A stretch of 64,000 nt of DNA from Naegleria gruberi (GCA_000004985.1 GG738924.1); one strand, 5' to 3'; counted from the stretch's first letter, positions 11,695 through 24,779 are shown. The notes: generated by a model not told the origin, from the letters alone. A program made the numbers and translations.

Positions 11695-12534
11695 TTACAC
11701 CTTTGCTCCATAGTACTCACTGCTCAACCTTTCTTGATAAAATTCTTCTGAAAATTCAAGGTAGAAACCATTTGATCTTACAGCTTCTAACTGGACTTGC
11801 TTGTTCATTTTCAAGATAAAAGGAAGATATTTCAAAGCTAGACCATTCTGTTGTACTGCCATCATTGCTAGCTCTTCTGAAATCAAGTTGTCTTCAATAT
11901 TGCAAACCACCAAACCATTGGTAGAGATCGCCTCTCTGATGAAACTTTCGTCATACTGGTGAGGATTGTTCCAAAAAGTTGCATTATTATATTTGATCAG
12001 TTCCAAATACATGTATCTATCTTCCCAACATGAAAATTCTGGAATAAAAAAGTTAATACGTCCACCTTTAGCAGCATACAAAACAATTTCCTTATCCAAT
12101 CTCAAGTTAAGTGAAAGACATTTGTAATTATGTGGATTCGTTTTCATAATGTGGAGTGCTAACTCTCTATCATTTCGTAAATCGCTCGACAAATAATCAA
12201 CAATAAAACATTGTTCATCCATTTTCTGCTCACAAAGTTCAAATATGAAATCTCTCTCGCTCAATATCGTATTTCTGGTGGAATGGAATTGTTCTGGAAG
12301 CTTTTCCAACATGGAAGGTTTTTTCAAGAGTGCAATTTTGAGAATTTCATCATCCATATAGTTAGCATAATGAACAGAATAGGGATTATGTTTAACTGCC
12401 TCTAATATAACCTCCCTGTCACATTTCAATAGATCTGATGCATATCTAAGGCATGATTGACCAGACACTAGTGGTTTATCGCATCTTACAGCCAGTAAAA
12501 CTATTTCTCTATCATTTTTCATTTCTCCACTCAA
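11695..12534 (-). CDS. DUF4116-like repeat protein, probably the 3' part of the gene that starts at 15055 (see the gap finding)
   Basis: Repeats fit the DUF4116 consensus (NDREIVLxAVxxNGxxLxY): MKNDREIVLLAVRCD, DREVILEAVKHNPYSV, DKEIVLYAAKGG, EELAMMAVQQNGLALKYL, QVQLEAVRSNGFYLEF. The first 71 aa are identical to an internal segment of ORF 14035-15055. Confidence 0.5.
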   Translation of the reverse strand: MSGEMKNDREIVLLAVRCDKPLVSGQSCLRYASDLLKCDREVILEAVKHNPYSVHYANYMDDEILKIALLKKPSMLEKLPEQFHSTRNTILSERDFIFELCEQKMDEQCFIVDYLSSDLRNDRELALHIMKTNPHNYKCLSLNLRLDKEIVLYAAKGGRINFFIPEFSCWEDRYMYLELIKYNNATFWNNPHQYDESFIREAISTNGLVVCNIEDNLISEELAMMAVQQNGLALKYLPFILKMNKQVQLEAVRSNGFYLEFSEEFYQERLSSEYYGAKV

Positions 12535-13984: not shown

Positions 13985-14034
13985 NNNNNNNNNNNNNNNN
14001 NNNNNNNNNNNNNNNNNNNNNNNNNNNNNNNNNN
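13985..14034. other. Assembly/scaffold gap (50 N)
   Basis: A run of 50 n characters. The track ORFs that translate across it (XXXX) are not real. Confidence 0.99.
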
Positions 14035-15055
14035 AGAGCGCAATTTTGAGAATTTCATCATCCATATAGTTAGCATAATGAACAGAATAGGGATTATGTT
14101 TAACTGCCTCTAATATAACCTCCCTGTCACATTTCAATAGATCTGATGCATATCTAAGGCATGATTGACCAGATACTAGTGGTTTATCGCATCTTACAGC
14201 CAGTAAAACTATTTCTCTATCATTTTTCATTTCTCCACTCAAATATTCCAAGCACATACTATTTGATTTCAAAGCGAGGAAAACAATTTCTCTATCCAAT
14301 CTAAACTCGGATGGAGTTTTTGCTATTATATTTCCATTTCGTTTAACAGCTTCTATCACAATATCCCTGTCAGTTGACCATCTTTTTTCTAAATCTCTCA
14401 ATACCAAACCATCAACCCTGACTGCTTTTAAAATCATTTCCCTATCATTCTTCAGATCATTATTTGCAAAATTTAATGAAAACCCATTGTACTTCACACA
14501 TTCTTCTATTATTAATCTATCACTTCTCACTTTCTCAGTTGCCAACTCTAAGAGAAGTAAAACATTCTTTTCTACCAATCCCTCAAATTTAACAATCTCT
14601 AAAAAGTGCTTTTTATCATCAAATACAGCTCTCATTGATGGATAATATGTCATCAATCTATTTAATATATCTTCTTCTAACAAATGTGCATGACTCTTTA
14701 GGAAATTGGCCACAAATTTCGTGTCATTCATTGTATTTTCCAAAGCCAATACTTGCTTTGAATCCACTCTATCGGTCCACAATAAATATTCCAAAGCAAT
14801 ATCAACATCCAACTTTAACATTGGATCAATCATTTCATAAACCATTTGAGGATTATTCTTCATATTTTCAATGATGAATGATTTATCTTTGGCATATTCT
14901 ATGGGAAAATATTCGTATGATTTTTCCATTCGAACAAACCATAACAGTTTGCCAAATTGTTGGCTTTCAAATTTGAATTTTAAATATTGGAAAGTTGGTT
15001 GAGTGGTGATGGGACGATCCGTAAGAATAATTGTAACTGGTTCTAACTCTGACAT
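14035..15055 (-). CDS. DUF4116-like repeat protein, 5' part. The ATG is at 15055 and the ORF is open down to the gap.
   Basis: The repeats NDREMILKAVRVDGLVLRDL, DRDIVIEAVKRNGNIIAK and DREIVFLALKSNSMCLEYLSGEMKNDREIVLLAVRCD are followed by the 213-bp segment identical to 12327-12539. Confidence 0.5.
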
Positions 15056-19893: not shown

Positions 19894-21037
19894 ATGTCAA
19901 CACAAGAACAAGCAGATAAATGGTTTGAAACTAATATGGATGTTTGGTATGATGCCATTGTCGATCTAACATTTAGGTGAGTTGATCTATTATTCTTCTA
20001 TTATTTAATTTGGTTATCATATTATAGAACAAGAATGATATCTCTTTCGGAGGAGCAAATTATGGCCATCATTCTCGATAATGAATATTTCAATGGTGAA
20101 TGCAATCAGGAAGTGTTGGAAACAAGTGGTATTGATATCGTGTCGAGTTTAAATTCCGACACAAGGCGAACAGTATTGGAAACGTTAGAAATTGATGTAA
20201 ATAGAGAGATGAAAGAATTATCTTGTTGTAATGATGAAGGATGTTTTATTAAATTGAGCTGTAGATCTCCGAAGGATGCCTTTGCTGTATGTGCAAAGAT
20301 GAAGGAGTTATTCAATGACAAGATTGAGAAAATTGTAATGGAAAAGAAAGGAGTTTTAGCAACTCCCAATGAAAGGTTGATAGCTGTCAACGAATCATTT
20401 ATACAATCAATGAAGGTGAAGGATTTTGCTGAAGAGTACACATATTTTACCAAGTCAGCAAGAGTATTGGAAGATTTACTGTTATTTCTCAAATATGATA
20501 AGAAGCAACGAGAAGAAAATCCTATCAAGATTATCATTAGAGAGTGGGTTGATATTCCTTCAAAATATGAATTCAGATCATTTGTGAAAAACAAACAATT
20601 GACAGCCATCTCTCAATATTTTGACACTTGTTCTATCCAGATTTGGTTGCAGAGGAAGATTTAATTAAGGAAAAAAACTATACGACTTTTTCACAAACCA
20701 AGTTGCTCATCGAGTTCCCCTAAATGATTACATTTGTGATTTTGCAATTGATTCGAATGGAAGAGTTTACATTGTTGAATTGAATCCATTCTCCACAACA
20801 ACTGATGCATGTCTCTTCAGTGTAAGTTGACTTTAATTCTTGAAAATTTATTTACTAAAATACTTACAATGAAAATAATAGTGGACAAAGGATGGTGAAA
20901 TTTTGAATGGAATACAAATCAAGAATGAAACAAATCAATTGGATCAGATCGAGTTTAGACTCAAAAAGGAAGTTGAAAAGCATTTGAAACATCAAATCAT
21001 TTCAGTGTGGGTTCCTTTTGTCATTCCATCCCAATAA
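19894..21037 (+). CDS. CDC123: CDC123/D123 family protein with three introns predicted, four exons (19894-19976, 20028-20821, 20882-21037). Exon 2 carries two apparent 1-nt frame disruptions.
   Basis: Exon 1 encodes MSTQEQADKWFETNMDVWYDAIVDLTF, then a GTGAGT donor and TATAG acceptor. Exon 2 reads ...REWVDIPSKYEFRSFVKNKQLTAISQYFDTC, then in frame -1 YPDLVAEEDLIKEK, then in frame -2 KLYDFFTNQVAHRVPLNDYICDFAIDSNGRVYIVELNPFSTTTDACLFS. It ends at a GTAAGT donor, and exon 3 encodes WTKDGEIL.... This aligns with human CDC123 (ISQRDYTQYYDHISKQKEEIRRCIQDFFKK...VWLIDFNPFGEVTDSLLFTWEEL). Confidence 0.6.
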
Positions 21038-21146: not shown

Positions 21147-22316
21147 ATGGGAAATTGGATCGCTAAAACATTTTCCACTTTTTCTACGAGAATCAATAAT
21201 TATTATGATTATGATGATAATGCAGAGAATGGTCGTGATGATGAGCAAACAAAAGGCCATAGAATAATTTGCGATTTATTTCGTGATTACGATCTTGATT
21301 GGGTGATTCCGAATAGTGATGATAATTCCGATATTGATGATCAATATTATCATCAATTAGTTTATAATGAAGAGAATATTGGAGTGTTGGAAGAAAAACT
21401 GCCGTGTGAAATCATTGTTTGCATTTTGACTTTTTTGCCTTTTGAAAGTTTAGTAAAACTTGGCAGAGTTTCGAGGAATTTTAGAAATTACTGGATAGAA
21501 TTGCCACAATTATGGAAATCGAGAAGTGATTCTAAAATAATTTCAGAATGTATGATGCCTTTTTGTCCTGTTTTTTCGAAAATTAATCCAGTGATGAATT
21601 CTCTATTCTTTCAAAAGTCAATGAAAGTCAAAATTAATAATTCATTTGTATATTCTGAAATACGGGAAGCAACGGATTTGAGTAGAATACCAATCGTAAT
21701 ACTGTATGTTTTTGTGGAATATTCAATTACTAACTCTTGGGGTCCTTCGATTAGATTTGTTGGTTTGGATAAATGTGGAAAATCGCAACTCATATCCAAA
21801 GCAATGAAACGAGAGAATTTCACAGATTTTTATATTCCTACTATTGGATTAGATACCTGCTCTTGTAGATATCGATATCAAAACAAATTGTTTCATTTCA
21901 ATACATGGGATACGAGTGGTCAGGAAAGATTTAAATTTGTCAACTCTACACTTCACTCGAAAGCAAAAATTAATTGTTTTTGCTTTAGTTTGAATGATTA
22001 TTCATCTTTTGAAAGGTGTAAGGAAAATTATAACGATTGGAAAAAAAGGAATGCTAATTACAAAGTTATGGAATATTTGGAAAATCATAATGGATGTGTT
22101 TTAATACTTGGATTGAAATCTGATCTAGAGCAGAAGGTTCCATCGCAGGAAATTAAAGAACTTCTATTGGTTGAACCGGCCAACTGCAGGTTATATTCGA
22201 ATAGAGTACAATATTTTGCGCTAAGCTCCAAGAATGATACATTTGAAGATTTGATGATACCATTCCTTTATGCTAGGTCAATAACAGAACAACCACAATT
22301 CTTCAATAATTATTAA
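21147..22316 (+). CDS. F-box domain fused to a Rab/Ras-like small GTPase domain (389 aa)
   Basis: The N-terminal F-box reads LPCEIIVCILTFLPFESLVKLGRVSRNFRNYW. The C-terminal GTPase has G1 GLDKCGKS, a switch-I TIG, G3 WDTSGQERF, and a degenerate G4 LGLKSDL. The N-terminus MGNWIAK has Gly at position 2. Confidence 0.6.
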   Translation: MGNWIAKTFSTFSTRINNYYDYDDNAENGRDDEQTKGHRIICDLFRDYDLDWVIPNSDDNSDIDDQYYHQLVYNEENIGVLEEKLPCEIIVCILTFLPFESLVKLGRVSRNFRNYWIELPQLWKSRSDSKIISECMMPFCPVFSKINPVMNSLFFQKSMKVKINNSFVYSEIREATDLSRIPIVILYVFVEYSITNSWGPSIRFVGLDKCGKSQLISKAMKRENFTDFYIPTIGLDTCSCRYRYQNKLFHFNTWDTSGQERFKFVNSTLHSKAKINCFCFSLNDYSSFERCKENYNDWKKRNANYKVMEYLENHNGCVLILGLKSDLEQKVPSQEIKELLLVEPANCRLYSNRVQYFALSSKNDTFEDLMIPFLYARSITEQPQFFNNY

Positions 22317-22348: not shown

Positions 22349-23134
22349 TTAACACAAGACAATGACAAATTGAAGAGTTGCCAATAGGAGCAAGCAAGCC
22401 ATATTGAACGTACCCACAGCAGAATTCATCTTGAAGACATATTCTTGTCCAATGTAGGCCCATGATCTTCCATTGTCCTTTCTGGTTGCAACTACATCAA
22501 TATGATAAGCGGCACTCTTCTTCAGATTTAATACGAAACTAGTTGATGAGGTACATCCTTGAAGTTCACTATCTGCAAAGACAGCACATGCACTTCCATG
22601 AACATCTCCATCATCATGTTCTTGTTCAGAGTGAGCATAGACACAATAGTCGATATAGGCAGCATTCTCAACAACTGGATTCCAACTCAATTCAATTTGG
22701 TCACCATTCTGTTTAACAGTGATGGAATCAGAGGATGGGAGGATTGGATATGGATTGGTAGAGGTTGAGTAGAGGAGATTATATCTTGCCTTGACATTAC
22801 CTGAGTTTGTAACCTTGAGATAATAGGTGGAGTTTCCTGGGAGAATACCATAAATACCTTTAAGATTGAATGGAGTAACAACATTTGGAATATCGTCCTT
22901 GGATGATCTGCTCTTATATTTAATTTGTGGAAATATGAAAGAGAATAAGCTATTGCCTGTGGTCAGTTCGCTTGCTTTAGAGACTTGGGATGAGTTGGCA
23001 ATGAACCAATCAATTTTTCCTTCACAAGGAAGAACAAAAACCATCAAATTGGAGCTAGTGACTGGATCTGTTTTAAATTTGTAAAGATTGGTCATACCAT
23101 TCGATTGAATTACTGAAGGAATGGAAACACCCAT
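22349..23134 (-). CDS. Putative secreted or GPI-anchored protein (body, 261 aa). A 19-codon signal-peptide ORF lies in frame upstream but is separated by a TAA.
   Basis: The body ends in a hydrophobic tail MACLLLLATLQFVIVLC and contains an FN3-like segment. Upstream at 23210-23153 the sequence ATGGCAATATTGCTTGTCATTATTTGCTTCATTACTACTCTTTCAATGGCTCAACAATAA encodes MAILLVIICFITTLSMAQQ* in the same frame. Confidence 0.45.
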   Translation of the reverse strand: MGVSIPSVIQSNGMTNLYKFKTDPVTSSNLMVFVLPCEGKIDWFIANSSQVSKASELTTGNSLFSFIFPQIKYKSRSSKDDIPNVVTPFNLKGIYGILPGNSTYYLKVTNSGNVKARYNLLYSTSTNPYPILPSSDSITVKQNGDQIELSWNPVVENAAYIDYCVYAHSEQEHDDGDVHGSACAVFADSELQGCTSSTSFVLNLKKSAAYHIDVVATRKDNGRSWAYIGQEYVFKMNSAVGTFNMACLLLLATLQFVIVLC

Positions 23135-23430: not shown

Positions 23431-24779
23431 GTGAAATAGTTTAATTTATTTTGTTATTAATATTTCTCACGTATTACTAAGAATCTGTTAACAAATTCAG
23501 TTAATTTACAAGGTTTTGATGATTGGCTTTGATGGCTTTTTACATGTCTTTCTCTTGATACAAATCTTCTTCTTGATTGACTTGCAACACTTTTTCTTTC
23601 CACCAACTAATTTGAATTTCTTACAAATCTTCTTTCCCTTTGAACGTTTCAAACACTTCTTATAATACTTCTTCTTGATACATCTTGGTGGAATGACAAT
23701 TGACTTGGCACAATACTTCTTCTTGTTATATTTCACACATTTGGAAATAGTCTTCTTGTGTTTACAGAACTTGATAGTCTTATGTTTGGCACAGAAGAAT
23801 TTCTTCTTAATGAGACAACATTTCTTAATGGATTTTCTCTCCTTACAATATTTAACCTTCTTATACTTGGCACATTTCTTTGCCCATGAAACAATCTTGC
23901 ACTTTTTAACATATCTACATTTGGCAATCTTCTTATTATAGGAATCAACAGTATACTTATCACAGACTTTCTTCTTTTCACACTTCTTGATTGGAACCTT
24001 CTTGAATTTCTTACAGATCTTCTTGCAACCCTTCTTGACACACTTGTTGACAATCTTGTGTTTGGCACAGAATTTCTTGAAACCCTTCTTAATACAAATC
24101 TTCTTAGTTCCATAAGAATCACAAACTTTCCAATACTTCTTCTTGGCACATCCAACAGTCTTGTATGCATGCAAGACACACTTCTTTGTTGCCTTACTGT
24201 ACTTGTCACATTTGGAATATTTCTTATGTTTGAGACATTTACCAGCACCGACAATTGCATATTGATCACAGACCTTCTTTTGACCGACGAGTTTGTGTTT
24301 CAAACACTTCTTAATCCACTTGTGCTTTAAGCATTTTCTCTTACAAATTCTTGGTTTGTGATACTTGTCAACTACGACAACTGGAGGTTTGGTTTGATAG
24401 CTGTCACTTGCTTGAACTGAGAGGATTGCAAGTAAAAGTAGAATTGCAATTGAAAAGATTAGATTTGTTTTCATTTTTTTGTTGGATAGTAAAGTTCAAA
24501 CACATGGTGCTAATTTAAACCATTTCGAATAGTTTTTCATTTGGAACAAACTCAAAAAGTTAGATGTAAGGTTCCAAATTTGGATGGAAATCTGATTTCC
24601 CTAATGAAACCTTCACTGATTCAATCTACTAATTTACTTTTCAAATATCAACTCATATTTCAAATTTAAATAATGTTATATGATTCGTACATTACAATTA
24701 ATTCAAGTTCTTCTTTCACTTTCAAGGTTTAATGCCTTCTTTTGTGTTTCTATTGAATGAGTAATTCATTAAAAATCTT
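23431..24779. repeat. Segmental duplication copy 1 (~1.35 kb). Its copy is at 33841-35170 in the same orientation.
   Basis: The aligned block starts at gtgaaatagtttaatttattttgttattaatatttctcacgt, runs through the K/C-rich gene and its 5' flank, and ends at ttcaaggtttaatg...tgaatgagtaattcattaaaaatcttt. Only a few substitutions and indels are present. Confidence 0.85.
23506..24474 (-). CDS. Secreted, extremely Lys/Cys-rich basic protein (322 aa), copy 1
   Basis: It starts with a signal peptide MKTNLIFSIAILLLLAILSVQA. The mature part is about 30% Lys and 15% Cys, with reiterated CxKHK, KKC and CAKxK units. The long antisense ORFs in the track are codon-periodicity artefacts. Confidence 0.6.
   Translation of the reverse strand: MKTNLIFSIAILLLLAILSVQASDSYQTKPPVVVVDKYHKPRICKRKCLKHKWIKKCLKHKLVGQKKVCDQYAIVGAGKCLKHKKYSKCDKYSKATKKCVLHAYKTVGCAKKKYWKVCDSYGTKKICIKKGFKKFCAKHKIVNKCVKKGCKKICKKFKKVPIKKCEKKKVCDKYTVDSYNKKIAKCRYVKKCKIVSWAKKCAKYKKVKYCKERKSIKKCCLIKKKFFCAKHKTIKFCKHKKTISKCVKYNKKKYCAKSIVIPPRCIKKKYYKKCLKRSKGKKICKKFKLVGGKKKCCKSIKKKICIKRKTCKKPSKPIIKTL

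Follow-up and report, generated by a model that had tools for sequence, protein, structure and literature searches.

An F-box–Rab-like GTPase gene of Naegleria gruberi and its family in Naegleria and Willaertia, with a G4 motif lacking asparagine

Described fusions of GTPases with ubiquitin-ligase modules

A Ras-superfamily GTPase is joined to a docking module for a cullin-RING ligase in Rab40, which has a SOCS box (Cul5), and in RhoBTB, which has a BTB domain (Cul3). In both of these the docking module is C-terminal, whereas the Naegleria gruberi protein considered here has an N-terminal F-box (Cul1) and no Pfam match to a SOCS box or BTB domain; the Rab40 and RhoBTB fusions and the F-box–Rab fusions are of independent origin. 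In the Euglenozoa, TbFRP (Tb927.7.3790) has a FYVE domain followed by an F-box and then by a Ras-like GTPase, without a CAAX motif, and its authors report no orthologue in Naegleria gruberi (PMC3593210). TbFRP and the Naegleria protein, both from Discoba, share an F-box placed before a Rab-related GTPase, the absence of a C-terminal CAAX motif, and membrane targeting at the N-terminus, which for the Naegleria protein is a prediction. However, the Naegleria gene encodes a Met-Gly start instead of the FYVE domain through which TbFRP binds membranes, and no Pfam match to a FYVE domain was obtained for its product at E-values up to 1. A subset of the Rab-domain effectors of Legionella, bacteria that live in amoebae, has an F-box or U-box (Gomez-Valero et al., bioRxiv 10.1101/350777), so that here also a Rab-type domain and an F-box occur in one polypeptide. 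A scan of 185,579 bacterial and archaeal genomes with the motif [RK][VI][QN]YFE[LVI]SxK gave 24 pattern matches and no confirmed bacterial or archaeal relative of the Naegleria protein; thus there is no sign, from this single motif, that the Legionella effectors derive from the Naegleria family.

The closest described proteins are those of Naegleria itself. The Ras superfamily of Naegleria gruberi was re-annotated by Herman et al. (2021, BMC Biol 19:142, PMC8296547), and according to the available text of that study the F-box is the commonest additional domain on Naegleria Ras-superfamily GTPases, occurring with Rab, Rho, Ran, and Gα. The same text places the present gene among divergent “Rab-like” GTPases, describes F-box Rab-like clades as being under dynamic birth-and-death evolution with some members disrupted, and proposes “GTPase-dependent ubiquitination” while holding that a specific functional prediction is not possible. 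The available part of its Supplementary Material 4 records a CaaX motif in one subgroup and contains no mention of the G4 variant or of the conserved Gly2 discussed below. Table S8 of the study prints the exact 389-amino acid sequence as corrected “XP_002669601.1*”, a Rab with the F-box as additional domain, and attaches no pseudogene flag to it.

Because the identical sequence stands in that table, the fusion is already known down to the single gene, and about two dozen relatives are catalogued in the same paper. The initial annotation of this DNA had called such a fusion unusual, a description that does not hold in Naegleria, where the F-box is the commonest extra domain of these GTPases and this very gene is listed (PMC8296547), nor more widely, given TbFRP in the Euglenozoa (PMC3593210) and the Legionella effectors (bioRxiv 10.1101/350777). 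Four points are added here: a G4 motif that is a hallmark of the family, a conserved Gly2 as predicted anchor, a probable intron leading to a 372-amino acid model, and the occurrence of the family in Willaertia as well. The remaining interest in the F-box–Rab gene is its function.

The gene, its product, and its genomic setting

The gene lies in a 64,000-nucleotide stretch of Naegleria gruberi DNA (the window), in which one unbroken reading frame of 389 codons plus stop extends on the plus strand over 21147-22316, from the ATG at 21147 to the TAA at 22314-22316, with an in-frame TGA 9 nt 5' of the ATG. The features are as follows, with coordinates counted from the first nucleotide of the window.

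21147..22316, plus strand: whole gene, Naegleria gruberi XP_002669601.1 in the corrected version of Herman et al. 2021
21147..21167, plus strand: N-terminus MGNWIAK, candidate N-myristoylation signal, fitting PROSITE PS00008
21396..21521, plus strand: F-box, residues 84-125, from Pfam, the LPxE motif, and three predicted helices
21522..21703, plus strand: family-conserved linker from F-box to GTPase, with a helix predicted at 156-176 and a K-I-N-N-S-F motif
21704..21754, plus strand: candidate intron of 51 nt, in frame and stop-free, GTATGT…TACTAAC…TAG
21756..22235, plus strand: Rab-like GTPase domain, from Pfam, solved-structure matches, AlphaFold, and Foldseek
21762-21785, plus strand: G1, P-loop GLDKCGKS, residues 206-213
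21831-21854, plus strand: G2, YIPTIGLD with the switch-I Thr, residues 229-236
21906-21932, plus strand: G3, WDTSGQERF, residues 254-262
22113-22124, plus strand: G4, LKSD replacing NKxD, residues 323-326
22224-22232, plus strand: G5, SSK, residues 360-362
22236..22313, plus strand: C-terminal helix and tail (…PFLYARSITEQPQFFNNY), without Cys

The gene lies in a region of 32% G+C, and the other genes of the window fit a compact eukaryotic genome of the Naegleria type with approximately 33% G+C. They include a D123/CDC123 gene, a gene for a COMM-domain protein, one with DUF4116 repeats, a protein kinase gene, and a gene for an EF-2-like GTPase; no further paralogue of the F-box–Rab gene is present elsewhere in the 64-kb window, and the genes adjoining it are functionally unrelated to it. 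Upstream, the D123/CDC123-family gene (20035 to ~21037, plus strand; Pfam E=4e-12) contains an obvious intron of ~62 nt at roughly 20823-20884 (GTAAGT…AATAATAG), and a shift of frame near 20640 points to another small intron or to a frameshift; its stop codon is only ~110 nt from the start codon of the F-box–Rab gene. Downstream, a 261-amino acid ORF at 22349-23134 (minus strand) with a hydrophobic C-terminal tail and a weak, sub-threshold match to NDNF fibronectin-III is convergent with the F-box–Rab gene, the two stop codons being only 32 nt apart. Beyond it, a 322-amino acid ORF at 23506-24474 (minus strand) without a Pfam match has a start resembling a signal peptide, extreme richness in Lys and Cys, and repeated C-x-K-H-K and KKC units, and may encode a secreted cationic cysteine-rich protein. 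Elsewhere in the window, a 50-N assembly gap (13985-14034) falls within the minus-strand gene with DUF4116 repeats, and on its right a stretch of ~160-200 nt is nearly identical to sequence 1708 nt upstream (12367-12527 versus 14075-14235), through either tandem duplication or an assembly overlap left unresolved.

Both domains read in the initial annotation are found in this one gene, and the F-box, P-loop, switch-I Thr, and WDTSGQERF that it quoted are all present. In the Pfam search that it had proposed, residues 84-125 score 26.3 bits with F-box PF00646 (cut-off 20.5) and 29.1 bits with F-box-like PF12937 (cut-off 24.3), a result repeated in four homologues, and residues 204-363 score 70.1 bits with Ras PF00071 (E=2.2e-19, cut-off 21.6); both the F-box and the Ras match are far beyond chance. 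The F-box core LPCEIIVCILTFLPFESLVKLGRVSRNFRNYW (LPCEIIV…RNYW) corresponds to residues 85-116 (nt 21399-21494) and begins with the LPxE motif (L85-P86-C-E88). An AlphaFold model built from a 15-sequence family alignment has F-box helices at residues 87-95, 99-108, and 110-116, with a moderate pLDDT of 64-72. Of the two family alignments (A1 and A2), both have P86 invariant, and W116 is invariant in A2. The F-box is followed by a linker of ~85 conserved residues. The model predicts disorder for residues 1-73, 128-155, and 169-197, and pLDDT is 85-95 across most of the GTPase domain.

Among solved structures, the top matches by sequence are Rab1A, Ypt6, and Rab1B (E from ~1e-9 to 4e-8), with further matches to Ypt31/32 and Rab9 (E up to ~1e-7). 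In Foldseek comparisons with the PDB, target TM-scores of 0.77-0.83 are obtained when the GTPase domain is superimposed on Rab9, KRAS, Rab8, and HRas, fold matches that do not separate Rab, Ras, and Rho; of the Rab motifs, only IGLD and WDTSGQERF are similar. G1 (GxxxxGK[ST]), the G2 Thr, G3 (DxxG), and G5 (S-A/S-K) conform to the GTPase consensus, and the catalytic Gln after DxxG is kept, but G4 departs from NKxD.

At the C-terminus (…QPQFFNNY) there is no CC, CXC, or CaaX motif, since the tail contains no Cys, and a Cys among the last four residues is found in only two of 21 relatives. At the N-terminus, GNWIAK fits the PROSITE pattern PS00008, G-{EDRKHPFYW}-x(2)-[STAGCN]-{P}. Gly2 is present in 18 of the 21 family members, although the strict pattern is fitted in only ten, and the Naegleria lovaniensis relative begins MGNSTTK. 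Because Gly2 is conserved and a terminal Cys is rare, the predicted membrane anchor is N-terminal acylation and not the prenylation of true Rabs; N-myristoylation, put forward as a possibility in the initial annotation, is thus plausible.

The first public model of this gene covers only part of it. An exhaustive HMMER search returned a 170-amino acid protein, XP_002669601.1 / EFC36857.1 (“rab family small GTPase [Naegleria gruberi strain NEG-M]”), which is 100% identical to residues 220-389 of the reading frame. Looking up contigs with the exact 389-amino acid sequence gave no match, because the public entry is this fragment. That the original model spans the GTPase side only could suggest that two genes, one for an F-box protein and one for a Rab, merely appear fused. 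The public model is, however, truncated, because its start falls downstream of the P-loop, and it does not define a separate gene; the domains are separated by neither a stop codon nor an intergenic spacer, the collinear layout and linker recur in more than 20 homologues from four species, and the curated re-annotation unites both parts. Two separate genes are hardly credible on this evidence, and that reading was rejected.

Although the 389 codons can be read without interruption, as the initial annotation had it, the reading frame probably includes a 17-amino acid insert encoded by an intron. Compared with close paralogues, the query has 15-20 extra residues directly before the P-loop strand, where the aligned paralogues have no insert. 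The DNA at 21704-21754, GTATGTTTTTGTGGAATATTCAATTACTAACTCTTGGGGTCCTTCGATTAG, has a GTATGT donor and the branch-site consensus TACTAAC 20 nt before a TAG acceptor, and is the sole match to GTA[AT]GT…[AT]ACTAA[CT]…AG on both strands of the 64-kb window; the other candidate introns that join ORFs in the window (50, 58, and 136 nt) have GTAAGT donors and TAG or CAG acceptors. The segment is T-rich (43%, versus 34% for the ORF), and the residues it encodes have a pLDDT below 50. Excision would delete YVFVEYSITNSWGPSIR (17 amino acids) to give …IPIVILFVGLDKCGKS and a 372-amino acid protein, whose spliced sequence …RIPIVILFVGLDKCGKS aligns with the family without a large gap. The spacing from N-S-F to the P-loop Gly becomes 21 residues, which is that of the paralogue XP_002680417.1*, an Arg midway along the β1 strand, which is normally hydrophobic, is swapped for Leu, and the match to the Ras HMM improves from 70.1 to 71.7 bits. 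GTAATA at 21696 was rejected as an alternative 5' splice site; the 59-nt intron that it gives breaks the frame. It is likely, from these sequence features, that 21704-21754 is a real, unremoved intron. The curated 2021 model keeps the segment (Table S8, PMC8296547), and that published version differs from the one proposed here in that it probably retains the 51-nt intron.

The family and its G4 motif

The gene is, with near certainty, one from Naegleria gruberi NEG-M that belongs to a lineage-specific expanded family in Naegleria and Willaertia. The cross-species search for the architecture that the initial annotation had proposed finds the same collinear layout in Naegleria gruberi (many paralogues), Naegleria lovaniensis, Naegleria fowleri, Willaertia magna, and environmental contigs: a Met-Gly start, then an F-box and a conserved helical linker, and last a Rab-like GTPase domain that is divergent and has no C-terminal prenyl cysteines. 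The family was recovered by the exhaustive HMMER search, in which the best relative is Naegleria lovaniensis XP_044554748.1 (357 amino acids, 42% identity, E=5e-58) and no orthologue above 50% identity was found. A word-indexed protein search returned no matches with the single query sequence, and with the family alignment only the Willaertia homologue and three weak Rab matches.

The Willaertia magna homologue (JBEGDK010000139.1, locus 1501-2592) is a 363-amino acid protein with LKSE at G4, and through it the family reaches beyond the genus Naegleria, to which the 2021 text had confined it (PMC8296547). Its gene is flanked by one for Cpn60/TCP1 and one with RCC1 repeats. The homologue is intronless, so its structure is neither positional support for nor evidence against the intron proposed above. 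Another entry of Table S8, XP_002677491.1*, has a model that begins MFSKIWK… and reads MGNKQPS from residue 23; this second Met is probably the true start, given the conservation of Met-Gly starts throughout the family.

The paralogues of Herman et al. 2021 resemble the present protein in the MG start, F-box, linker, [LMT]KxD at G4, RVQYFELSSK block, and C-terminal helix with P-F-x-Y, but among those aligned only the present gene keeps the catalytic Gln after DxxG. The residue at this position is variable (D, S, H, N, E, or I), and since Gln occurs only in the query among 13 aligned sequences, hydrolysis is not a conserved property of the family. Invariant or nearly so in the family alignments are the P-loop Gly/Gly/Lys, the G4 Gly and Lys, the F-box Pro, and the Y-F before G5; the DxxG Gly is invariant in A2 and at least 90% conserved in A1.

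The Asn of NKxD is replaced by Leu in LKSD (residues 323-326), as the initial annotation had read, but its description of G4 as degenerate is misleading. Counted over 21 full-length members, the first position is L in 13, M in six, and T in two, and never N, while the fourth is D in 19 and E in two. As L, M, or T is fixed family-wide with Lys and Asp/Glu kept, this pattern points to selection of the G4 variant and not to decay, and the comparison indicates that a non-Asn G4 is a family hallmark and not a private degeneration.

Ras N116 mutants exchange nucleotide quickly, and TKxD is the natural form in the low-affinity dynamin and SRP GTPases. In the engineered mutant Ypt1 N121I an aliphatic residue takes the place of the same NKxD Asn, and binding of both GDP and GTP is abolished (PMC2120555). 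In contrast to that mutant, the Naegleria change is natural, fixed in the family, and found alongside a conserved P-loop, Thr, DxxG, and Asp, and the family probably retains or compensates some nucleotide binding despite it. Loss of the Asn probably lowers guanine-nucleotide affinity. The initial annotation had suggested altered nucleotide specificity; since the Asp that specifies guanine is still there, altered base specificity is less likely than lowered affinity or fast exchange. Conservation of the P-loop, switch-I Thr, DxxG, and Asp would favor a low-affinity switch that works without any exchange factor, rather than a pseudo-GTPase free of nucleotide, the alternative also raised there.

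A pseudo-GTPase is found elsewhere in the family. The nearest Naegleria gruberi paralogue, XP_002680417.1* (Table S8), has a good F-box and no pseudogene flag. In it the P-loop (now GDGFLQKR), DxxG, and the Lys of G4 (now GFLSD) are gone, and it is, judging from these motifs, a true pseudo-GTPase version of the F-box–Rab architecture. As this paralogue has no P-loop, nucleotide binding may be dispensable for the role of the family.

Possible roles of the protein

The role judged most likely for the protein, with a probability of about 40%, is that of a membrane-anchored, nucleotide-gated SCF substrate receptor, a mechanism we infer from the features above. N-myristoylation would put the protein on a membrane, and the F-box would dock onto Skp1 and hence onto an SCF (Cul1-Rbx1) ubiquitin ligase; the presence of SCF in Naegleria is assumed from its universality in eukaryotes, a search for Skp1 in Naegleria having found no usable literature. 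The GTPase domain would take the place of the WD40 or LRR substrate receptor of other F-box proteins. In one nucleotide state its switch regions would bind effector-like partners, which would then be ubiquitinated, and this would amount to “GTPase-dependent ubiquitination.” The [LMT]KxD form of G4 would probably lower affinity, so that the switch would exchange quickly and need no exchange factor, yet it would not be nucleotide-blind, as the P-loop, switch-I Thr, and DxxG are under constraint. The initial annotation had also envisaged an SCF adaptor, a putative role that agrees with the proposal in the available text of Herman et al. (PMC8296547).

The same parts could be arranged differently. 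The F-box may couple the GTPase mainly to its own SCF-dependent autoubiquitination, so that the Rab-like signal is short-lived. F-box proteins are often autoubiquitinated, and a role of this kind has been suggested for the F-box of TbFRP, which is quickly processed and turned over. Self-targeting and substrate targeting are not told apart by the sequence, but the GTPase domain is exactly at the position of a substrate receptor, after the conserved linker of ~85 residues that follows the F-box, and self-destruction as the main function is considered rather unlikely. Somewhat less probable again is a complex in which the F-box binds Skp1 without a cullin, as in yeast Rcy1 and the RAVE complex, and the Rab-like domain is a conventional trafficking switch. 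The best sequence matches are indeed to trafficking Rabs (Rab1, Ypt6, Ypt31/32, and Rab9) and a membrane anchor is predicted, but a trafficking switch fits poorly with the missing prenyl tail, the highly divergent Rab motifs, and the hydrolysis residues that are unconserved in the family.

The odd G4 and the 17-amino acid insert before the P-loop could instead be degeneration in a decaying or non-functional paralogue. Disrupted members and birth-and-death turnover are on record in the available text of the 2021 study (PMC8296547), the nearest paralogue has no nucleotide-binding motifs, public annotation holds only the 170-amino acid fragment, and the best orthologue is only 42% identical. However, 389 codons are intact in a region of 32% G+C, as are G1, G2, G3, G5, and the F-box, the G4 variant is family-wide and not private to this gene, the insert is better explained as an intron, and the curated table does not flag a pseudogene. 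Decay is therefore improbable for this gene.

The substrate-receptor reading may be extended, more tentatively, from this gene to the whole family: the Naegleria and Willaertia proteins would all be membrane-anchored SCF receptors in which substrate choice is gated by a fast-exchanging GTPase free of any exchange factor, and they would have rapidly diversified at the interface between organism and environment. If this is true, the family would be a new direct coupling of small-GTPase signalling to ubiquitination. If the mechanism holds, a GTPase switch would be hard-wired into a cullin-RING ligase, in parallel to Rab40-Cul5 and RhoBTB-Cul3 but via SCF, and the fixed loss of the NKxD Asn would illustrate how a Ras-like domain is retuned so as to need no exchange factor.
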